Below, one piece after another: positions 2,340 through 16,327 of a stretch of DNA of 16,327 nucleotides (position 1 is its first letter; every line of letters starts with the position of its first letter). The notes below the pieces were generated by a model, which had not been told where the DNA came from, did no database searches, and saw only the letters and a list, made by a program, of their open reading frames with translations. Made by a program: the position numbers and the translations under genes. This DNA comes from a virus: the UHGV virus genome UHGV-1577189. One strand, 5' to 3'.

Positions 2340-2576
2340 CTAAAAGCGGGAAAAAATATCGTTCAGACGACACAGAGGCAATTCGCAAAAACCTCCTTTA
2401 TTGCGCAAGTGGTTTTTCCAGCGGTTTTGCGCCGCGCTGGGCTTTTTGCAAAAACCACAATCCATCATCCCGTAATATTTCATCAACCCCATCCGTCGGT
2501 TGCTGAGTCTCACCCACTGCCAGACGCCAGGAGCGTTTCTACGAACTAACAGAATCTTTGCTTTACGGTTTTTCAT
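2340..2576 (-). CDS. Small basic hypothetical protein (78 aa)
   Basis: ATG start with strong RBS AGGGGG 6 nt upstream; K/R-rich. It overlaps an inverted-repeat-rich region upstream of the resolvase, so it is uncertain. Confidence 0.35.
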   Translation of the reverse strand: MKNRKAKILLVRRNAPGVWQWVRLSNRRMGLMKYYGMMDCGFCKKPSAAQNRWKNHLRNKGGFCELPLCRLNDIFSRF

Positions 2577-2850
2577 CGTTTGCCCCCTGCTTTTCTGCCC
2601 TTAACACCATGCGAGAATCATCATCCAGCTCCCAATTGATTTCACCGCATTCTGCCATGACAAGATGCCAAACGAGTTGTGCGGCCTCGTTGGTTACATC
2701 ACGACCGCGATCATTGCCTACACGGCGTTTTGTTCCGTCACCTAAATCGCGCATTTTGGCCAACACGATGGTTTTTGATAGCGGTGAAAAACCAAGCTGT
2801 AGCCGTGCGGAATTACTCACTGGTTGCCCCCTGAATACGTTTAAACTCAA
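2563..2850 (-). CDS. Possible small hypothetical ORF, start uncertain (TTG at 2850 or ATG at 2754)
   Basis: Protein-like composition on the same strand as the flanking operon, but no clear start codon or RBS. Confidence 0.2.
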   Translation of the reverse strand: MSLNVFRGQPVSNSARLQLGFSPLSKTIVLAKMRDLGDGTKRRVGNDRGRDVTNEAAQLVWHLVMAECGEINWELDDDSRMVLRAEKQGANDEKP

Positions 2851-3505
2851 TTACCCATACCCACGGGTTAGATAGCCAGTTCTCTTGCCCGTAAATACCG
2901 CGCCAGATATCACCAAAGCCAACGCGATAAACAGCTTCCGGCGGTGTAATCTTGTACGTCGCCGGAGATGCGCCTTCCGCTTTAGCATCTGCCTCGCTCA
3001 TGTCATGCAGCCGTTCCACACGCACGTCGGTAATTTCCAGCAAAATACGCGAAGCCCAGCGCGGCATGTGAATTGATGGACGCCACCCGCCATCAAACTT
3101 TTCATTCACAGTGTGAGGTTTCCAGTCGGCATCATCGGGTATCGACCATAAGCCGTAATCACCCGGCTTTTGCTCACAACTGGCCCGATAAATCCTTGCT
3201 GCGTTCTTCTCATCGCCACGACAAAGGTTGTCGTTCCAGTCCACACTGCAACCATCCTCATTGCCTAATATCGCCCACGCCTCACGGACCCATATGCGAT
3301 CACCAACGTTACCGAACGGGCATAAACCATGTTCAGGTGCATCCATAACGTGGGTATAGACACCATTGCGTTTCTTTGTCGGTTTACGGATAACCAGGCA
3401 GTTATCGGCCCTGACATTTTTTACAGGTCGGCGAGTCTGCGTCTTCCTTCCTTCGAGGATGGCCCTAACCATATCGTCATTAAAAACAACACCACGTTCT
3501 TTCAT
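2813..3505 (-). CDS. Phage-associated hypothetical protein, possibly ASCH-like fold
   Basis: 230 aa; ATG with RBS AAGGTGG; N-terminal MVRAILEGRKTQTRR resembles the GxKxxExR-type ASCH signature from memory. Last gene of a four-gene overlapping operon. Confidence 0.55.
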   Translation of the reverse strand: MKERGVVFNDDMVRAILEGRKTQTRRPVKNVRADNCLVIRKPTKKRNGVYTHVMDAPEHGLCPFGNVGDRIWVREAWAILGNEDGCSVDWNDNLCRGDEKNAARIYRASCEQKPGDYGLWSIPDDADWKPHTVNEKFDGGWRPSIHMPRWASRILLEITDVRVERLHDMSEADAKAEGASPATYKITPPEAVYRVGFGDIWRGIYGQENWLSNPWVWVIEFKRIQGATSE

Positions 3506-3660
3506 TTAGAAGCCACCTTGTTCAATTTCCGGCGACAAGACACGCAATCATCAGGACTCTCAAAAGTGTCTGGCTCACGGTAATCACCAAAATACATCCA
3601 ACGGCCGCAAATGCTGGTTACTTCACCTTCATTAAAATAATGATGTTTATTCGCCTTCAT
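3502..3660 (-). CDS. Small Cys-containing protein (zinc-ribbon-like CxxC near C-terminus)
   Basis: Stop overlaps the next start (ATGA); CVSCRR motif. The ORF could extend to 3756, but that would overlap the upstream gene by about 66 nt. Confidence 0.35.
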   Translation of the reverse strand: MKANKHHYFNEGEVTSICGRWMYFGDYREPDTFESPDDCVSCRRKLNKVASK

Positions 3661-3689
3661 TGGCCTGACCCATCCGGCATTTTTCTTGC

Positions 3690-4055
3690 TCACTTCAACT
3701 CCTCCCGACGACGTTCCTGAAGCTCTAGCATTGCGGCTCGGAAATCCTGCCACCATTCCTCATCTGCAACGGGGGTGTTCCGCTCCAGCACCTTGTCCGC
3801 ATCGGCGATCAGGTTTGCCAGACTCTTGTCTGAAATCTTCGTTACCGGAGTCGTTGGTTGCTCAACCTGCCCGATAGGTTTTATCGTGCTCAAAAGGAGG
3901 CGACGGCGGGAAAGTGGTGCCCCACAACGACGGCCATCTTCCTTGCGATATGTTTCTTTCGGACCAACACACCAGGTTGTCGGCGTTTCGCGCAACTTCA
4001 CTCTTTTCTCACCATCATTGGTAATGATTATTCCGGTATGGGTTTTGATGCTCAT
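3690..4055 (-). CDS. Hypothetical protein (121 aa)
   Basis: ATGA-coupled to the upstream gene at 4052-4055; charged C-terminal helix-like segment; no family recognised. Confidence 0.5.
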   Translation of the reverse strand: MSIKTHTGIIITNDGEKRVKLRETPTTWCVGPKETYRKEDGRRCGAPLSRRRLLLSTIKPIGQVEQPTTPVTKISDKSLANLIADADKVLERNTPVADEEWWQDFRAAMLELQERRREELK

Positions 4056-4333
4056 GCCACAGCCCCTCTCAACGGCTTAACTTTGGCTAATAAGGTGTTA
4101 AACAACATGGAGTTAGGATTCATGCCAAATGGCAATTCCGGTTTAGCGGAGTAGTACAGGCAACCATTTATTTTCCTGGTTGTTATCTGTCCTTCGGCAA
4201 CCATGCTTCTCAGTCTGCAACGCATAGAGTTCTGCGACACACCAATGTGCTCCGCGATTACGTCCACTTTTGAACATGGGTGATCGGTCAGGAAATTAAT
4301 CACATCTTGGGGGTTAATAATTTTGCGTTTCAT
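4052..4333 (-). CDS. Putative winged-helix DNA-binding protein (about 93 aa)
   Basis: ATG at 4333 with RBS AAGGA about 10 nt upstream (the ATG at 4354 has none); first gene after an AT-rich promoter motif. Confidence 0.5.
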   Translation of the reverse strand: MKRKIINPQDVINFLTDHPCSKVDVIAEHIGVSQNSMRCRLRSMVAEGQITTRKINGCLYYSAKPELPFGMNPNSMLFNTLLAKVKPLRGAVA

Positions 4334-4380
4334 TGTCGAGGCGTCCTTATACATTTATATAAATATATAATTCTATATAC

Positions 4381-4398
4381 GGCGGGAGATATCCCGCC
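4381..4398 (-). terminator. GC hairpin downstream of the 4411..5478 gene, candidate terminator
   Basis: 7-bp stem GGCGGGA/TCCCGCC with 4-nt loop, followed on the minus strand by an AU-rich tract. Confidence 0.4.
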
Positions 4399-4410
4399 GT
4401 AGGCTTACTG

Positions 4411-5478
4411 TCAGGCTTTCAATAGCGATTCTTTCAGATATCGGGCATCAGCCAGGGCGTTTGGAGTAATCTTGCGAACCCATGCATTACGGGTTGGACT
4501 CCACTTAAAGGCGCGTGATTTAAGCAGCGAACGAATGTTTGCCTCTGGTTTGCCAGGGAAATAAAACAGGATGCGGTTATCCTCTGGATCTATCTCCATA
4601 GAAAAGCCGTCGTATTCTTCGCGCTGTGCTCCTGTTACAGACTTGACCGATTCAAGCTCCTTAATACGGCTCTGTAGTCGTTTGATTTCGGCCTTATTGT
4701 TGCTCAGTGCGTATGAAGGGAATCCGATGTGCCCACAGAAATCTCCGGCCAGTAACTCTTTGGCTTCGCTTTCTGTAAACCTGAGATCGATTAATGCAGA
4801 AAGCTGCTGTAATTGGTCTTTTTTGTATTTGCGAATGGCCTTATTTGCTGCCTTCATTTTGACGTGTGACTTCATGCAGCCTTGCAGCTTACGAAGCAAC
4901 TTAAATAGCGCATCAGGATCATCAGACGAAATTCCATTACGACCAACACCTGCGGCTTTGCTCTCGTAGTGTGATGCTTTACTTTCGCATTCAACAAACG
5001 CTTTTCTGAATAACGCATCAGCTTTAGACAAACGGCGGCGATGGCCTTTCGCGCTATAATGGTCAACTAAAATCGGCTGGCCTAACGGGATCACATCCAA
5101 CAGGTCATGCGCTCGCTTATGCGCTACCGCACCTTCTTTTCTGGCTTTTTCTGCACGAGCAATATATCGGGCAAGACGCGCGTTCTGGCGTTCCTGATAG
5201 GTGTTTACGTAATCATCTCCGCGCTGCTGCTGTTCAAGCCATGCTTTGCGCAGATCTTCTGTTACGTCCACCAGCTCCGCAGGGATACAACCAGTTTGGG
5301 CTTCATAAGAGTAACCATCCTCATAGATACGCCCATCGTCTTCAACAAAGAAAAAGGTTTCGTGCTCATCGCTTTTGACCATACGACCATTAACATGGCG
5401 TAATAGGTAGCCAGTATCAGTGCTTAACAGGCTGTTAGGGTTGTTGATCCAGTCAGAAATAATTACTTGTTTATTCAT
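4411..5478 (-). CDS. DUF3560-like domain protein (355 aa), function unknown
   Basis: ATG with RBS GGAGAAA; C-terminal half (GQPILVDHYSAKGHRRR, ISSDDPDALFKLLRKL, FKWSPTRNAWVRK) matches my memory of the DUF3560 family. Confidence 0.7.
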   Translation of the reverse strand: MNKQVIISDWINNPNSLLSTDTGYLLRHVNGRMVKSDEHETFFFVEDDGRIYEDGYSYEAQTGCIPAELVDVTEDLRKAWLEQQQRGDDYVNTYQERQNARLARYIARAEKARKEGAVAHKRAHDLLDVIPLGQPILVDHYSAKGHRRRLSKADALFRKAFVECESKASHYESKAAGVGRNGISSDDPDALFKLLRKLQGCMKSHVKMKAANKAIRKYKKDQLQQLSALIDLRFTESEAKELLAGDFCGHIGFPSYALSNNKAEIKRLQSRIKELESVKSVTGAQREEYDGFSMEIDPEDNRILFYFPGKPEANIRSLLKSRAFKWSPTRNAWVRKITPNALADARYLKESLLKA

Positions 5479-5484
5479 CAGATT

Positions 5485-5580
5485 TCTCCGGTTTAACCAG
5501 GGCGGGTATCGCTCGGTTTCGGGTATAACCTTAGGAAATTTTTTCCCACCTGTAAAGCACTTTTTATATAAATCTATAAT
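5485..5580. repeat. 96-bp promoter/leader module, copy 1 (3 mismatches to 14556..14651)
   Basis: Direct comparison of the two segments; lies immediately upstream of the start codon at 5478. Confidence 0.85.
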
Positions 5581-5647
5581 TATATATTTATAGATTTTCG
5601 ATGTTCCCGATGTCTACACACCATCAAAACAGCTCAAAATGACACTT

Positions 5648-7507: not shown

Positions 7508-7998
7508 TCCTCAAGCCTCCCAAGTGCTGAACGCCGGGCGTTGCTAATCTCCTTATGAATCAGCTCGATATCGCTGGAATCTTTATTCTTAAGCTCCAGC
7601 ACGGTAATCGCATCACGAACCTCTGAAACGGTTACGTGTGAGTGTTTCCAGCGAGCAATGAATCGCGGACCGCGTAGATTGCAACGCTCCGCAGGCATCC
7701 CCAGCTCAGAGAAAACCGCTTTCAGCCTTGATAAGCAGTTAACAGGGAGATTCCCTTTGATCTTGTTCTGCCGAACCGATGTGCCATCGCTACGCTGGCG
7801 CTGACGTTCGGCAAAATCTGCCGCCCATTGCTGGACGTTAATCCGGCCTTCCGAATACGCCACCAGCAGCGTCAGGTTATCCGCACGAGGGAATCTCTCG
7901 AAGCGATACCAGGCACCAATCAGTGATGACGTAAAGCCAAACTTTCTGGCAACACCAATTTGGCCTCCATTTTCGTCAACCCACTCCTGAAAGGTCAT
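7504..7998 (-). CDS. Cro-like/YdaS-type HTH protein with C-terminal extension (164 aa)
   Basis: ATG with RBS GGAG; N-terminal WVDENGGQIGVARKFGFTSSLIGAW is a YdaS/Cro-like HTH; divergent from the repressor across the operator cluster. Confidence 0.6.
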   Translation of the reverse strand: MTFQEWVDENGGQIGVARKFGFTSSLIGAWYRFERFPRADNLTLLVAYSEGRINVQQWAADFAERQRQRSDGTSVRQNKIKGNLPVNCLSRLKAVFSELGMPAERCNLRGPRFIARWKHSHVTVSEVRDAITVLELKNKDSSDIELIHKEISNARRSALGRLEE

Positions 7999-8017
7999 TT
8001 AACGAACTCCAGTTAAA

Positions 8018-8135
8018 ACCACGATATGTGGTATTAAAACCACATATCGTGAGTTTTTCAATGGGCGAAACAAAAAATAACCTTCTATTTGTGGTCCACC
8101 TCTCGTCTTACCATGTGAAAACCACTAAATGTGGT
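8018..8135. promoter_or_regulatory. Operator cluster between divergent cro-like and cI-like genes
   Basis: ACCAC-GATAT-GTGGT (8018-8032), ACCAC-ATATC-GTGAG (8039-8053, imperfect), ACCAC-TAAAT-GTGGT (8121-8135), all in A-rich context. Confidence 0.6.
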
Positions 8136-8172
8136 AATGTATAAATAACCCACCATTCACGATTGATGAGAC

Positions 8173-8829
8173 ATGAAAAGCAACGACGAGAACATCAAGA
8201 AAGAAATAGGTCTGCGCATTCAGACTCTACGGAAACAATCCGGCATGACTGCCGGAGATCTCCAGCAAGTCACTGGAATAGGCTTAAGCACCTTGCAGAA
8301 CTATGAGGCCGGATTAAGACAACCATCGATACCTGCCATCAAGAAAATCGCGCACGCCCTGAAAGCATCAGCGCCTTATATCGCGTGCTTAACAGATAAC
8401 CCGTTCCCACCCCAGAATACTAACGCTCCTGTTATTCCTGGGCTTGTAGCTATAAAAAATGACATAGCATCGCACGCCGGAGAAAAGCCAGTGCTGGCGA
8501 TAGAACAGGAGATTCTACGAAGCAAGAACATCAACCCATCGTCTCTGTCAGTTCTCCAGAGCAACGATGAGTTAATGTCACCAACAATATCCCCTGGCTC
8601 CCAAGTCCTGATTAATACAGACGATACAGAGATTCATGAGGGGATCTATGCCCTTGAAGACAGAAATGGCCTGGTTGTTTTGAGGCACTGTAGAGTCATA
8701 CCGGGTGACAATGCTGTTATGCTGTCAACCGAAAGGGATGCTGAAATGAACACTAAGCATCTGAATAACGAGGAATTTAAGCGTTATAAAGTTCTTGGCC
8801 GCGTAGTTAGTGTTGTCAACTGGTTATGA
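8173..8829 (+). CDS. CI-like phage repressor: N-terminal HTH_XRE plus C-terminal S24 (LexA-like) domain
   Basis: 218 aa; HTH LRKQSGMTAGDLQQVTGIGLSTLQNYEAG; C-terminal beta-rich domain with an Ala-Gly dipeptide (SHAGEKP) and conserved Lys (RYKVLGRVV); catalytic Ser context is atypical (ELMSP). Confidence 0.8.
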   Translation: MKSNDENIKKEIGLRIQTLRKQSGMTAGDLQQVTGIGLSTLQNYEAGLRQPSIPAIKKIAHALKASAPYIACLTDNPFPPQNTNAPVIPGLVAIKNDIASHAGEKPVLAIEQEILRSKNINPSSLSVLQSNDELMSPTISPGSQVLINTDDTEIHEGIYALEDRNGLVVLRHCRVIPGDNAVMLSTERDAEMNTKHLNNEEFKRYKVLGRVVSVVNWL

Positions 8830-8871
8830 TACACAGCACGGCGAAAGCCGTGCATTTCTACGCTCAAAAAA

Positions 8872-8886
8872 ACCACATTATGTGGT
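8872..8886. promoter_or_regulatory. Fourth ACCAC-N5-GTGGT operator (ACCAC-ATTAT-GTGGT) between the repressor gene and the next ORF
   Basis: Same palindrome family as 8018-8135; followed by TTGACA (8888-8893) and RBS AGAGG before the ATG at 8922. Confidence 0.5.
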
Positions 8887-8921
8887 TTTGACAACATGTA
8901 AAAGTATAAAAGAGGCTACGC

Positions 8922-9296
8922 ATGGAATTACATACAGCCAATAAAAATGAAACTCTGATCACTGCTGGAATCGAAATCCAAGCGTTGAACATAGCGATTG
9001 AGTGTATGTTATGCCAAATCATTGATAATGAGAAAGATATCGACTGGATAGAATCTATCCTTCATCTGGCATCAGAACAAAAAGTCTGCCTCAAAACGGC
9101 CTTGCAATACGATGTGCCAGCGGTATCGAAGCTGTGCCAGCCATTGATGGCATATAACAGGGCTATTATTTCTGTATGCCTCATGATTCTTGATGAAAAC
9201 ACCCCTCTTAGCGACCGCTCAGAAGCTGCTCTAACCCTCTCACGTAAACAGCGACAGCTAGCAAATCAACTGATATCAACGATAGCTGACCTCTGA
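8922..9296 (+). CDS. Hypothetical protein (124 aa) co-oriented with and downstream of the repressor
   Basis: ATG with RBS AGAGG; followed by a hairpin at 9301-9320; no family recognised. Confidence 0.55.
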   Translation: MELHTANKNETLITAGIEIQALNIAIECMLCQIIDNEKDIDWIESILHLASEQKVCLKTALQYDVPAVSKLCQPLMAYNRAIISVCLMILDENTPLSDRSEAALTLSRKQRQLANQLISTIADL

Positions 9297-9300
9297 CTGC

Positions 9301-9320
9301 AAGCGGGCTAACGCCCGCTT
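9301..9320 (+). terminator. Hairpin terminator candidate after the 8922..9296 gene
   Basis: 8-bp stem AAGCGGGC/GCCCGCTT with loop TAAC, followed by an A/T-rich tract. Confidence 0.4.
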
Positions 9321-9425
9321 ATATGATTATAGATTTATATAATTATATAAAACACTTTCCATCCGCCAAAAAGTTGGTTATGCTTACCTCGTTCTATAAA
9401 TATAGATTTATAGAATTATATAACC
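9321..9425. repeat. AT-rich repeat region upstream of parA (candidate centromere/operator)
   Basis: Two copies of ATAGATTTATA(T/G)AATTATATAA at 9321-9351 and 9394-9423; the same motif family recurs at 4354-4380, 5563-5597, 10099-10131 and 14634-14665. Confidence 0.5.
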
Positions 9426-10100: not shown

Positions 10101-10143
10101 TATATAATTATAGTTTTATAGATTTATATAAGAGGGGATACAC

Positions 10144-10392
10144 ATGGCCGCACCATCAAAACCACCAAAGAAGAACAGCAAAGGCGTACCGCCATCGATC
10201 GAACAACCGCAGGTTTTCGACCCGACTGAAACGCCAACCAGAACCAAATCAGGTGGGGCACAAATGGCGTTTAACGTCGACCCTGAATTTAAACGCGAGT
10301 ACAAAACGTTCGCCAGTTCAATGGATATGTCATTGAAAGAAGTGCTGACAAAATCTTTTGAGTTACTCAAGGCTCAATACAACCAGAAGTAA
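10144..10392 (+). CDS. ParG-like ribbon-helix-helix centromere-binding protein
   Basis: 82 aa, basic disordered N-terminus; C-terminal MAFNVDPEFKREYKTFASSMDMSLKEVL resembles the TP228 ParG RHH segment; RBS AAGAGGGG; directly downstream of parA. Confidence 0.6.
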   Translation: MAAPSKPPKKNSKGVPPSIEQPQVFDPTETPTRTKSGGAQMAFNVDPEFKREYKTFASSMDMSLKEVLTKSFELLKAQYNQK

Positions 10393-10733: not shown

Positions 10734-10792
10734 TCTTACGGTATATAAGCTACTGCAATGGTAAACAGCTATCAAATGCAGGTTGCAGTAAA

Positions 10793-10812
10793 AAAGGCCC
10801 CCGAAGGGGCCT
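10793..10812 (-). terminator. Rho-independent terminator for the small peptide gene
   Basis: Stem AGGCCCC/GGGGCCT with loop CGAA; a T-run follows on the minus strand. Confidence 0.5.
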
Positions 10813-10817
10813 AATCG

Positions 10818-10940
10818 CTACTTGCTGCTAATGTTTATCGTCACATTCAGAGCGTTATCAGTAATCTTCCAACCCTCCCCATGTGGCGTAAACAAAGCTC
10901 CAGTAACAACGATAAAAATACACATGTAGTATTTTTTCAT
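10818..10940 (-). CDS. Small hydrophobic peptide (40 aa: MKKYYMCIFIVVTGALFTPHGEGWKITDNALNVTINISSK), candidate type I toxin-like membrane peptide
   Basis: ATG at 10940 with RBS AAGGG 8 nt upstream (the track start at 11000 is TTG); Lys-rich N-terminus then a hydrophobic segment; terminator immediately downstream. Confidence 0.4.
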   Translation of the reverse strand: MKKYYMCIFIVVTGALFTPHGEGWKITDNALNVTINISSK

Positions 10941-11219
10941 TGTGTGGCCCTTACAGGCCGTTTCACGGCATCCCCACCGACGAAAATGACGCGAGAGCAA
11001 GCACGCTGTTTGTGCCTGCGTGGTACGGCAAGTGGATAATCCTTTCCTGAAAGTCAGTGCCCGGGTGCGAATCGGCGGAAAGGCCCCAAGCCATATTACA
11101 CGTCATACCCTTCATAATGAAGGAATAAAAAACGCTTTTATTACATGAGATTACACGTAAATAAGTTAAAAACCTTCATTTTGCATGAGCTAATGAGCTA
11201 AATTTTTTTATATGAATAG

Positions 11220-11429: not shown

Positions 11430-11528
11430 CCATTGGTGGACACTTTCCGAGCCGTAGCAAAATCTACGGTCGGGATTGGAACCCCGATAATCATCATGGC
11501 GCATACCGCGTTAGCGGTTTTTTTATGC
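11430..11528 (+). ncRNA. Candidate c4-like antisense RNA of an immI-type antirepressor module
   Basis: Three consecutive hairpins (CCGTAG/CTACGG; TCGGG-ATTGGAA-CCCGA; ACCGC-GTTA-GCGGT plus T7) upstream of a small ORF and ant; the loop GATTGGAACC recurs in the leader hairpin loop at 11638-11647. Confidence 0.35.
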
Positions 11529-11689
11529 GTAAAGCACTGCTACACCCAAATTATGGTGGGGCGTGCGGGGGAGTCGTAAGACTCGCCGGATTCCATGGTG
11601 ACCGGTAGTTCCAACCCTGTACGTCTCACCACCCAATGATTGGAACCAGACGGTGGTGAGTATCCTTAACCTTTAAGGGAACTATCACC

Positions 11690-11881
11690 ATGACAAACTT
11701 ACCCCATGACTATTACGTCAACCTCGTAAAGATCCTTCTCAAGAAAGCCTCATACGCCGATAAATTCCGCCTGGCTGAAATCATCGAGCGCGAAGCTATG
11801 CGCATCGCCAGCAACGATAACGCTGTTTCTGACGCAAAAATCTCCCTCGTAACCAAAGTAGTTATGGGAGGTGCAAAATGA
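11690..11881 (+). CDS. Small ORF (63 aa) translationally coupled to ant (icd-like position)
   Basis: RBS TAAGGGA; its stop overlaps the ant ATG (ATGA at 11878-11881); preceded by a 9-bp-stem leader hairpin at 11625-11662. Confidence 0.45.
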   Translation: MTNLPHDYYVNLVKILLKKASYADKFRLAEIIEREAMRIASNDNAVSDAKISLVTKVVMGGAK

Positions 11882-13023
11882 AAACGCTTCCGACCGTTAA
11901 CACCCTACAGCCTATCCTGCATAACCAAATCCCTGTCATTACTACCGAGTTACTAGCACAGCTTTACGGCACTGAGCCGGTGCGTATTCGCCAGAATCAT
12001 CATGAGAACAAAGCACGTTTCGTTGAAGGGAAACACTTTTTCAAAGTTGTTGGTAATGACCTTAAAGAATTGCGGGTAGCTTTAAACTACTCTCAAAATC
12101 CAGTTTCACCTAAAGTCCGCTCCCTCATCCTCTGGACAGAACGCGGGGCTGCACGTCACGCTAAAATGCTCGAAACCGATCAGGCGTGGGATGTATTCGA
12201 ACGGCTGGAAGACTGCTACTTCAACCAGAACGCGCAAACGGCCGCGACCGTAACCGTCTCACCAAACAATGCTCGTGAGGTTGTCGATACGCTCAACGCT
12301 AAACCAATGTATTACATTAAGGTGTGCAACAACGAGCCACTCACAACCTCAGCCGATGTTGCCCAGGCATTCAGCACCACAAACAATTCCATCGTTATGG
12401 CCATCGATGCGTTACGCATTCCTCGCACAGCTGCGGCGCGTCACTTCTTTAAAGAGCAACGACCGCTGGAAGGAAGCGACCGCGAAATAACAATCTATCG
12501 CATGACAAAAGACGGATTTACCTTGCTCATGGAGAGCATCGACGGTCCAAGCGTGAAAGATATCAAGCTGGCCTACATTGAAGCCTTTAACGCTATCAGC
12601 AGCGTGTTAAAAACACAGTACGAGCGTGATCTGGCTAAACGACTATACCAGGAAAAAACGATTATCCGCGCGGCAACAGAGCATAATCGGCTATTAACGG
12701 AACCGAACTACAGGAAGGAACTAATCAAGGAGTTTGACAAGGCAACAGGGAAAACCAAAGCGGCGCTAAGTCTGCCAGCAATGACTCAGGAAAATGTGAT
12801 ATCAGCCTTACTTCTTGATCTGCTCAGAAACGCCAGAGCACTTATCAGCTTTGACGAAAACCTGAATCCTCAGCTCAAGCTACTACCACCGACAGGCAAA
12901 GTAGTCGACCAAGCAGAACACAACAGCATACTCAGCGTACTGGATGCAAACCTGCCAGCCAGGACACTACAGGATCTGATAAAAACATGTGCTGATAAGC
13001 TGGCACAGAAAAGCAGACCATAA
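11878..13023 (+). CDS. ant: Phage antirepressor Ant
   Basis: 381 aa; N-terminal ITTELLAQLYGTEPVRIRQNHHENKARFVEGKHFFKVVGNDLKEL and SLILWTERGAARHAKMLETDQAWDVFERLEDCYF match the antirepressor N-terminal domain; RBS GGGAGG. Confidence 0.8.
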   Translation: MKTLPTVNTLQPILHNQIPVITTELLAQLYGTEPVRIRQNHHENKARFVEGKHFFKVVGNDLKELRVALNYSQNPVSPKVRSLILWTERGAARHAKMLETDQAWDVFERLEDCYFNQNAQTAATVTVSPNNAREVVDTLNAKPMYYIKVCNNEPLTTSADVAQAFSTTNNSIVMAIDALRIPRTAAARHFFKEQRPLEGSDREITIYRMTKDGFTLLMESIDGPSVKDIKLAYIEAFNAISSVLKTQYERDLAKRLYQEKTIIRAATEHNRLLTEPNYRKELIKEFDKATGKTKAALSLPAMTQENVISALLLDLLRNARALISFDENLNPQLKLLPPTGKVVDQAEHNSILSVLDANLPARTLQDLIKTCADKLAQKSRP

Positions 13024-14168: not shown

Positions 14169-14549
14169 TTACTTAACGAGGAATAAAAATGGTTTATTGT
14201 TCGGCGGTGTAATCGGGGCTGGCTCGCTTTTGCTCATGCGATCAGTGTACCAGGCCAGCTCCTTGTCAAAGTAAGCCTGATTAAAATAGGCCATGAATGT
14301 AGTTTCAAATCCATAACGACCGCTAATACGCAGCATCTGATTGCCGTTCTCTGTTTCCAGATATACCTGGGCACGTTCCTGATTCTCCTTCAGCCAGGTT
14401 AAAGCCTCATCGCACGAGGACACACGGTACTCATCATCGTAGCCGTCATCGATGCGGCTTGAAGAAGAACGGCAAATCACGCCAACAGAACCAGCCAGGA
14501 TAGTTTGAATTTTAAGGAAAGCATTTTTGCGGATTTTAATCATGCTCAT
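14169..14549 (-). CDS. Hypothetical protein (126 aa) driven by the duplicated promoter/leader module
   Basis: ATG with RBS GGAGA in the conserved leader; no family recognised. Confidence 0.6.
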   Translation of the reverse strand: MSMIKIRKNAFLKIQTILAGSVGVICRSSSSRIDDGYDDEYRVSSCDEALTWLKENQERAQVYLETENGNQMLRISGRYGFETTFMAYFNQAYFDKELAWYTDRMSKSEPAPITPPNNKPFLFLVK

Positions 14550-14555
14550 CGGGTT

Positions 14556-14651
14556 ATCTCCGGTTTAACCAGGGCGGGTATCGCTCGGTTTCGGTTATAA
14601 CCTTAGGAAATTTTTTCCCACCTGTAAAGCATTTTTTATATAAATATATAA
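14556..14651. repeat. 96-bp promoter/leader module, copy 2 (3 mismatches to 5485..5580)
   Basis: Direct comparison of the two segments; immediately upstream of the start codon at 14549. Confidence 0.85.
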
Positions 14652-14672
14652 TTATATAATTCTATGAGCACA

Positions 14673-16272: not shown

Positions 16273-16327
16273 GTCTAATAGGAAACGATGTTTCTTACGT
16301 TTTATCGCGTTCTGATGGCTACTGTGT
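16273..16327. repeat. Terminal overlap copy 2 (identical to 50..104)
   Basis: Exact 55-nt match to the start of the biological sequence. Confidence 0.85.

Follow-up and report, generated by a model that had tools for sequence, protein, structure and literature searches.

Summarized in Table 1 are the genes and sequence features found between positions 2563 and 5478 of the viral genome UHGV-1577189, a stretch of 16,327 nucleotides (nt) that is referred to in its entirety as the window. The window matches circular ~48-kb E. coli plasmids with 97-98% identity; E. coli ATCC 25922, for instance, harbours a 48.5-kb relative. Coding within 2563-5478 lies entirely on the minus strand and includes a string of small genes whose products are a winged helix-turn-helix (wHTH) protein, proteins of 121 and 63 residues (p121 and p63), a 230-residue protein with an ASCH fold, and a DUF7446 protein. 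An earlier note, made from the sequence alone, had described the first four of these as a translationally coupled operon and had put them forward as a candidate defence or counter-defence module. As outlined below, the region is likely the promoter-distal part of an early operon in which independent accessory genes have been brought together, one of them for an ASCH protein of the YqfB type.

Table 1 Genes and other features of the region, numbered from the first letter of the window.
Feature	Position	Strand	Remarks
DUF3560 gene, 355 aa	4411..5478	-	Pfam DUF3560 E 3.7e-31; PHROG 6744; directly upstream of the string, same strand
GC-rich hairpin ACGGCGGGATATCTCCCGCCGT	4379..4400	-	Between DUF3560 and wHTH genes
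31-nt AT-rich motif copy	4347..4377	-	Adjoins wHTH ribosome-binding site (RBS); repeat family D1
wHTH gene, probably 93 aa (longest ORF 100 aa from 4354)	4052..4333	-	PHROG 1687 E 5.2e-32; PGAP start 4333
p121 gene, 121 aa	3690..4055	-	PHROG 7520
p63 gene, 63 aa	3502..3693	-	PHROG 2358 E 2.4e-24; GTG start
ASCH gene, 230 aa	2813..3505	-	P1 PmgT family, PHROG 874 E 1e-88
DUF7446 gene, 85 aa	2563..2820	-	Pfam DUF7446 E 2.4e-15; PHROG 1578; called by PGAP; GTG start; Shine-Dalgarno sequence AGGGGG upstream

Gene models and small proteins

Four minus-strand open reading frames (ORFs), namely 4354/4333..4052, 4055..3690, 3660..3502, and 3505..2813, had been called previously, and all four are confirmed by the sequence, by NCBI PGAP, which calls the same ORFs on close plasmid relatives, and by matches of their products to the phage PHROG families 1687, 7520, 2358, and 874 with E values of 2.4e-24 to 1e-88. 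Diverged protein homologues of the four products are present in other genera. Given these homologues and the PHROG matches, the four genes are regarded as real and translated, including those at 3502-3660 and 3690-4055, for which a lack of translation would have counted against the earlier proposal. Each is preceded by a Shine-Dalgarno-like sequence. The start/stop overlaps reported before are also present: the minus strand reads ATGA both at 4055-4052, where the stop codon of the first gene overlaps the start codon of the second, and at 3505-3502, where the third gene overlaps the fourth. Plus-strand ORFs in the region (3775-4080 and 3073-3348, for example) are treated as shadows of the minus-strand genes, because homologues exist only for the minus-strand products. 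NCBIfam holds no family for any of the region's proteins.

Two of the ORFs stand as called, but the other two models require revision. The wHTH gene probably begins at ATG 4333, as in the PGAP model, and not at ATG 4354, which sits inside the non-coding AT-rich motif. The third gene had been read as 52 residues from ATG 3660. Its homologues, however, are 62-72 residues long and start with MSKKAGWARP, and the window encodes an in-frame VSKKNAGWVRP directly upstream of ATG 3660. Within this N-terminal extension Gly 7, Trp 8, and Pro 11 are invariant in homologues down to 33% identity (including those of Wifcevirus and Cedarrivervirus at 33-44%), and tblastn alignments to phage genomes begin at residues 1-7 of the 63-residue form. 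As judged from the conserved extension and these alignment starts, the gene begins at GTG 3693 and encodes 63 residues. This codon overlaps the TGA of the p121 gene (GTGA), and the Shine-Dalgarno sequence GGGAGGAG lies 7 nt upstream of it. With the new start, the 29-nt gap that the earlier model left between the p121 and p63 genes vanishes. The same small correction to the annotation can be made on many RefSeq plasmids. At the other end of the string, the DUF7446 gene shares 8 nt with the ASCH gene as a fifth coupled gene, and thus the coupled string contains at least five genes. The genes and the start/stop overlaps of the four-gene operon placed at 2813-4354 are therefore real, but its limits are wrong: DUF7446 overlaps it downstream, and leftward genes extend back from it to 7998.

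The assignment of the first product as a winged-helix protein is supported by PHROG 1687, which carries the label 'MarR family transcription regulator', and by weak Pfam matches to HTH_24, FaeA, TrmB, and PaaX, all of them below threshold. Membership in the MarR family entails dimerisation helices, a length of ~140-150 residues, and a Pfam MarR match above threshold. At 93 residues the wHTH protein is too short for a true MarR, and the PHROG label is a loose annotation. Its phage homologues are 27-37% identical, and Klebsiella siphoviruses account for 46 of the 56 matching records. The second product, p121, is a mosaic in which an N-terminal five-stranded β-barrel (residues 1-60) is connected by a disordered linker to a C-terminal helical hairpin (residues 76-120). 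Searches of the PDB sequences with wHTH and p121 gave nothing significant.

The description of the third product as a CxxC peptide also holds. Across p63 homologues of 33-81% identity, Gly 7, Trp 8, Pro 11, His 18, Phe 20, Ser 27, Cys 29, Cys 50, and Cys 53 are invariant. The side chains of His 18, Cys 29, Cys 50, and Cys 53, present in all eight sequences compared and spaced as H-x10-C-x20-C-x2-C, probably form a zinc site. Four such ligands with a CxxC knuckle are typical of small zinc-ribbon or treble-clef proteins. Virulent Wifcevirus phages encode homologues of p63, and others lie beside a ParB/KorB-like gene in phage Sf11 and, in a Mu-like prophage, between DUF2786 and GemA/Mor.

Fold and predicted chemistry of the ASCH protein

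The ASCH-like signature first noticed in the 230-residue protein is supported by both its fold and its octapeptide, and the assignment can be sharpened to the YqfB type. The protein displays the ASCH/PUA-like β-barrel. In a Foldseek search, structures of YqfB (PDB 9KYF and 9KYH) ranked first with target TM-scores of 0.73-0.74, and YqfB is the nearest structure by sequence identity (27%) and by root-mean-square deviation. The overall architecture is that of a YqfB-type core, formed by residues 1-27, 63-80, and ~150-230, which is interrupted by two insertions at residues ~28-62 and ~81-149. At twice the size of YqfB, the protein falls outside the small (~100-residue) single-domain class. Residues 1-27 align with YqfB without gaps, and Gly 19, Arg 20, Lys 21, Thr 22, Thr 24, and Arg 26 are identical in the two proteins. 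The octapeptide G-x-K-x-x-[E/T/S]-x-R near the N-terminus defines the ASCH superfamily (PMC9599836) and reads G19-R-K21-T-Q-T24-R-R26 here.

These residues are strongly conserved. The motif G-x-K-x-x-T-x-R is found in 251 of 270 homologues, the remainder being fragments or single substitutions, and neither Glu nor Ser occupies the threonine position in any of the 270. In an alignment of 61 diverse homologues, Lys 21 and Glu 177 are invariant, and Thr 24, Arg 26, and Asp 173 are at least 90% conserved. The same alignment displays an N-terminal block, MKERPILF..MVRAIL.GRKTQTRR, a central block, CP.G..GDRLWVRE.W, and two C-terminal blocks, WRPSIHMPRWASRI.LEIT.VRVERL.DISE.DA.AEG and F..LW..I.G..SW..NPWVWVIEFK, with variable inserts in between. 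Gly 65, Glu 75, Arg 149, and Arg 153 are invariant residues specific to the family and are tied to the two insertions. An hhalign comparison, which gave a weak local match (probability 11.6%), places residues 52-79 of YqfB on residues 155-182, such that His 70 falls on Asp 173 and Glu 74 on Glu 177. The YqfB segment 'DIY89...YVIEFK' would correspond to 'DIW201...WVIEFK'; in YqfB, His 70 and Tyr 89 frame the substrate. The predicted active site comprises Lys 21, Thr 24, Arg 26, Asp 173, Glu 177, and Trp 201.

The K21A, T24A, and R26A mutants of YqfB are inactive, and the activity of the E74A mutant is reduced 100- to 1000-fold; in the proposed mechanism the lysine functions as a base, the threonine as a nucleophile, the glutamate as an acid, and the arginine provides an oxyanion hole (PMC6972931). 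By analogy, Lys 21 would serve as the base in the 230-residue protein, with Thr 24 as the nucleophile, Arg 26 in the oxyanion hole, and Glu 177 as the acid. The predicted substrate is the N4-acyl group of cytidine, either in free N4-acetylcytidine (ac4C) or in RNA, as for example in ac4C34 of elongator tRNA-Met, where it is the wobble mark in E. coli. The arginine-rich insertions, which contain the invariant Arg 149 and Arg 153, may supply a nucleic-acid-binding surface. A 2026 preprint reports in vitro removal of ac4C from bacterial tRNA by every one of the 19 ASCH proteins tested; its structure-based tree mentions viral members for the Glu-type (GKER) and not for the Thr-type (10.64898/2026.02.27.708502).

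A number of observations weigh against an active enzyme. The match to Pfam PF04266 (ASCH) covers only residues 156-181 and falls below the gathering score (15 versus 21.2 bits, E 0.04); the two insertions split the domain, and PGAP still names close relatives 'ASCH domain-containing protein'. Searches of the PDB sequences with the protein gave nothing usable, and the family profile matched no PDB sequence, so the link to YqfB came solely from structure comparison. The equivalence of Glu 74 and Glu 177 derives only from the hhalign match and a global superposition. The insertions might change, abolish, or retarget the activity, for example toward the role of a reader. ZmASCH and TRIP4, which are of the Glu-type (GKER), unlike the Thr-type protein here, did not hydrolyse the free ac4C nucleoside, and hence the ASCH fold alone is no guarantee of activity. 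Finally, we know of no benefit to a phage from the removal of ac4C. On balance, the conserved residues and the modelled fold suggest an active N4-acylcytidine amidohydrolase of the YqfB type, a tentative assignment that stands just short of an even prospect. That the protein acts on host RNA to the benefit of the phage is doubtful.

Two other functions for the protein must be weighed against catalysis. It might read RNA or DNA that is modified or structured without being catalytic, a role suggested for numerous PUA-like domains, or it might be a ribonuclease, as ZmASCH is. Against this, the full predicted YqfB-type catalytic set is kept in the 61 aligned and 270 motif-scanned homologues, a sample of a family with more than 43,000 cluster representatives, as is expected from purifying selection on catalysis; YqfB is the closest structure; and the proteins with a Thr-type octapeptide tested to date are active amidohydrolases. 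A reader or a ribonuclease is accordingly considered unlikely. The second function is a morphogenetic one, in virion assembly, and arises from the homology of the protein to PmgT of phage P1 (described below), whose name denotes a 'putative morphogenetic function'. The P1 annotation and the name 'Morphogenetic protein' among the UniRef hits are in its favour. Knock-down and deletion of pmgT, however, leave plaque formation by P1 unaffected (PMC10695390), and the P1 gene lies behind a C1-controlled early operator and not a late promoter. The neighbouring genes, both in this plasmid family and in 80 other loci, are early recombination and regulatory genes; the fold is that of an enzyme or an RNA-binding protein; and the gene has been kept in a mini-plasmid that lost every structural gene. 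We give a role in virion assembly almost no credence. The YqfB-type amidohydrolase is the function preferred here.

PmgT homologues and gene neighbourhoods

The match of the 230-residue protein to PHROG 874 extends over residues 1-229, and its homology to the P1 PmgT family is thus full-length. At the nucleotide level, P1 pmgT is 91% identical over the central 329 nt. At E<=1e-3 the family comprises 43,282 cluster representatives, and at E<=1e-10 still 31,972, which makes it very large. The first gene to follow the C1-controlled operator Op88 in P1 is pmgT, and it is dispensable for plaque formation, both by CRISPR interference (CRISPRi) and by deletion (PMC10695390). Note that P1 pmgT is annotated as encoding 309 residues (NC_005856.1 84488-85417) and overlaps pmgU by ~200 nt, whereas family members are typically 200-236 residues long; the P1 model may be over-extended at its 3' end.

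The genomic settings of the ASCH gene were surveyed in 80 diverse viral loci containing PmgT homologues. Usual neighbours encode integrase, RecT, a lambda-Exo/YqaJ-type exonuclease, DNA methyltransferase, TraR/DksA zinc-finger proteins, Ead/Ea22-like proteins, and cI-like repressors. A setting of this kind is that of the early accessory genes of temperate phages. The commonest immediate neighbour, present in 23 of the 80 loci, is a gene for a 73-residue TraR/DksA-type C4 zinc-finger protein that starts within a few bases of the stop codon of the PmgT homologue, and it is possible that the two proteins are functional partners. The parent plasmids also carry a tRNA with a CAU anticodon (positions 8933-9008 of plasmid sequence L001 and 1588-1663 of L004), which is absent from the window and is called tRNA-Ile by PGAP but tRNA-Met by ARAGORN and in a Yersinia phage record. 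A link between this tRNA and the ASCH gene was considered and rejected: within ±5 kb of the gene, none of 58 other loci has a CAU-anticodon tRNA, and only attachment-site tRNA-Arg and tRNA-Leu were found. Its presence beside a putative ac4C amidohydrolase in the parent phage-plasmids is probably coincidental.

The proposal to be judged against these neighbourhoods is that the four or five genes form a defence or counter-defence module in which the wHTH protein senses or regulates, p63 and p121 function as adaptors, and the ASCH protein recognises a modified base or RNA. A conserved module would be expected to recur across unrelated genomes, and this one does not: wHTH, p121, or p63 genes accompany the ASCH gene in only one of the 80 loci, and that locus belongs to the same plasmid family. 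No matching phage record contains homologues of both wHTH and p63, and loci exist with stand-alone homologues of the p121 N-terminal domain or of p63 and none of the other genes; indeed, homologues of each gene lie in unrelated phage contexts. Within the family, DUF3560, wHTH, and p121 are constant, whereas p63 and ASCH vary. Several members lack the p63 gene, among them one whose ASCH allele is 98% identical; ASCH alleles, which range in identity from 72 to 100%, are swapped independently; and in one member the 5.4 kb of sequence compared contains no ASCH gene. Among the defence hidden Markov models of PADLOC-DB v2 there was no match for five of six proteins from the region, and the sixth, wHTH, matched SoFic only at chance level (E 0.0063, 13.9 bits). 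Nor do the proteins contain a nuclease, an ATPase, or any other effector domain, and a literature search linking ASCH with anti-defence returned nothing relevant.

The overlaps that gave the four genes the appearance of a unit are equally frequent in the genes upstream. Twelve leftward genes extend from 7998 to 2563 and diverge from a cI-like repressor gene (HTH_3 and Peptidase_S24 domains; 8173-8829, plus strand). Their order is p164, p171, a 77-residue ORF, Ref nuclease, DUF1064, p125, DUF3560, wHTH, p121, p63, ASCH, and DUF7446. Most junctions are overlaps of a few nucleotides or 3-nt spacings, and there are just two true intergenic gaps, one of 169 nt before DUF3560 and the other of 77 nt before wHTH. 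In the 48-kb relatives the unit runs on through three further small genes to the lysis cassette. Since overlaps are common throughout, the tight coupling characterizes the operon in its entirety and is no sign of a four-gene system. A defence or counter-defence module is thus very improbable, and the dispensability of pmgT for lytic growth of P1 also speaks against it. The data support independently shuffled accessory genes and not an autonomous four-gene system; they leave room for counter-defence by the ASCH protein on its own. The earlier note had allowed that the genes might prove to be ordinary phage genes of the nin type with known roles, and this is borne out for their location but not for known roles. 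The operon itself is ordinary, and it illustrates how start/stop overlaps in a phage early region can mimic a dedicated system though they are the normal packing of shuffled genes.

What is gained is a testable hypothesis for PmgT, which has been 'putative morphogenetic' since the P1 annotation and of 'unknown function' in PHROGs: that of a YqfB-type amidohydrolase employing Lys 21, Thr 24, Arg 26, and Glu 177. A wider reading of the family alignments and modelled fold would be that the PmgT proteins (more than 43,000 sequence clusters from temperate phages and prophages) are phage N4-acylcytidine amidohydrolases that erase ac4C from host RNA (ac4C34 in E. coli), or act on an unidentified N4-acylated cytosine compound, early after induction or infection. 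This we consider improbable on present evidence. If true, a very large class of viral enzymes that act on the epitranscriptome or modify nucleotides would have gone unrecognised, and the question would arise as to why temperate phages need such an enzyme. Recent work frames the ASCH proteins as erasers of tRNA ac4C, and a Thr-type phage family of this size would extend that picture.

Transcription, the carrying element, and related systems

Transcription of the leftward unit most likely starts at a promoter diverging from the cI-like repressor gene, near 8000-8170, and may be reinforced at a sigma-70-like promoter upstream of the DUF3560 gene. The transcript would then read through a hairpin that lacks a U tract into the wHTH, p121, p63, ASCH, and DUF7446 genes, and ribosomes would be handed from gene to gene over the 4- or 8-nt overlaps. 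The products would be independent accessory proteins assembled by modular recombination.

The earlier note had the operon driven from an AT-rich motif promoter. The motif itself is real. It is 31 nt long, is built of four 8-bp units (TATAnAWW three times followed by TATATAA), and occurs at six loci in the window (4347-4377, 5564-5594, 9320-9350, 9393-9423, 10101-10131, and 14636-14666), whereas none is expected from 200 shuffles. All six copies are intergenic and oriented with the downstream gene. The ParA gene is preceded by two copies, of which the second directly adjoins its start codon, and is followed by one that abuts the RBS of the next gene, which encodes an 82-residue protein (10144-10392). 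Three copies are positioned just upstream of sigma-70-like hexamers; in the case of DUF3560 these are TTTACA at 5556-5551 and TAAGGT at 5533-5528, separated by a 17-nt spacer. The other three (ParA copy 2, the gene after ParA, and wHTH) end 9-14 nt from a start codon, leaving no space for a normal leader, and no -35/-10 pair of the sigma-70 type was detected at the wHTH copy.

The six-copy motif resembles the iterated operator/centromere arrays of type Ib partition systems and omega-type global regulators. A 108-nt cassette at 5485-5592 combines the motif with the TTTACA-N17-TAAGGT promoter and a common 5' leader whose end reads GGAG-N7-ATG; it recurs with 95% identity at 14557-14664, upstream of the gene at 14549. 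Copies of 92-97% identity precede the unrelated genes for DUF3560, a 126-residue protein, and, in the parent plasmid, an MT-A70 methyltransferase; in parent sequence L001 they are located at 7912-8039 and 24343-24461. The repetition suggests a co-regulated set of promoters and leaders.

The hairpin at 4379-4400 has a 10-bp GC-rich stem when folded as RNA, and the surrounding 101-nt region has a z of -2.35. It was not called by the terminator scan and has no U tract; it is therefore no canonical intrinsic terminator. Across eleven relatives the variation is confined to the loop, apart from one stem change from G-C to G-U. The hairpin was also considered as a palindromic DNA operator and rejected as such: no second copy was found in the window or in the 25.9-kb stretch of parent plasmid L001 examined, and variation in the loop instead of the stem favours an RNA hairpin.

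The motif at 4347-4377 could nevertheless serve as a promoter or operator, perhaps an unconventional one or one that depends on an activator, and provide the five genes from wHTH to DUF7446 with a regulated transcript of their own, which would detract from the read-through model; that model, for its part, draws its start site, promoter use, and read-through from the sequence only. The presence of six co-oriented intergenic copies, with none expected by chance and three just upstream of sigma-70-like hexamers, argues for such a function, as does the occurrence of a copy in both gaps of the leftward unit, and the hairpin could halt upstream transcripts. Because copies flank the ParA gene, control might be exerted by a small centromere-binding or omega-like protein. 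The wHTH copy, however, has no recognizable -35/-10 pair, a -10 element inside the motif would give a leader of only a few nucleotides, and the hairpin has no U tract. The three RBS-abutting copies also resemble operator or translation-control sites more than promoters. A separate transcript is thus possible but rather unlikely, and read-through from upstream is most likely the source of transcription for the wHTH-to-DUF7446 genes.

The element that carries the window is a temperate phage-plasmid. Its ~48-kb relatives encode terminase, holins, endolysin, and tail-fibre genes with an invertase in addition to an IncFII RepA and ParA; the virion-forming Yersinia phages vB_YpM_39/41/44 also match the window; and Rfam identifies a P1/P7-type C4 antisense RNA with c4-a1b1 targets and isrK at 11438-11636 (plus strand). 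The phage-structural and RepA/ParA genes of the relatives, the virion-forming relatives, and the C4/isrK RNA together establish its nature. This P1/P7-type immI immunity region precedes an ORF6N/Rha antirepressor-like gene (11878-13023), and Rfam further places ryfA at 10790-11088 on the minus strand (134.6 bits). Inverted repeats of the form AAAACCAC-N6-GTGGTTTT are located at 8015-8056, ~8130-8150, 8869-8894, and 1613-1637. These positions fall in the interval that separates the leftward operon from the cI-like repressor gene, past the end of that gene, and ahead of repA. As candidate operators for the repressor, the repeats would tie lytic control to plasmid replication. No operator-like AAACCAC-N6-GTGGTTT site is present within 2563-4420.

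Bases 1-49 of the window are an Illumina Nextera adapter (...GTCTCGTGGGCTCGGAGATGTGTATAAGAGACAG), an assembly contaminant, and every database match begins at base 50-52. A 55-nt terminal repeat is identical at 50-104 and 16273-16327. These identical ends show that the contig represents a circle of 16,223 bp, and the join is collinear with the 48-kb relatives. Missing from the window are ~32 kb of the parent phage-plasmid, which hold the tail-fibre and structural genes, terminase, ParB/Srx genes, MT-A70, a tRNA, the lysis genes, and three small genes. The deletion junction at ~2393-2407 was compared with related plasmid sequences (L002 19270-19295 and L001 ~11791). It reads TTCGCAAAAACCTCC followed by TTTATTGCGCAAG and joins the left half of an invertase crossover site to sequence that lies shortly past the end of the DUF7446 gene. 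The loss looks like an invertase-mediated deletion, and the window like the replicating mini-plasmid left behind by it, with RepA, ParA, a RelE/ParE toxin-antitoxin pair, and the immunity and early genes.

Several known systems invite comparison. E. coli YqfB, an N4-acetylcytidine amidohydrolase with an ASCH domain, contains 103 residues versus the 230 of the protein described here with its two insertions; the latter is phage-borne, expressed early, and below threshold for Pfam ASCH, and its activity is predicted. P1 PmgT (gp095) of PHROG 874 is a direct homologue, and both genes reside in repressor-controlled early units of phage-plasmids. P1 pmgT differs in heading its own small operon, pmgT-pmgU-pmgV, with other neighbours and an annotated length of 309 residues, and its name implies a morphogenetic role without support. 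The small regulators of the MarR/FaeA-PapI type resemble the wHTH protein in having a single wHTH of ~70 residues, but the 93-residue protein is too short for the dimerisation helices of MarR, and its Pfam matches all fall below the gathering thresholds. The organization of the locus is reminiscent of the nin and ea (b2) regions of lambdoid phages, which are likewise strings of small, overlapping, individually dispensable early genes shuffled as modules, and an exchange of modules of the Ead/Ea22 type is seen for p121. No named Nin or Ea protein is among the four, however, and whereas the lambdoid phages integrate, the element described here is a plasmid-prophage with an IncFII RepA, ParA, and a P1-type C4 immunity RNA.

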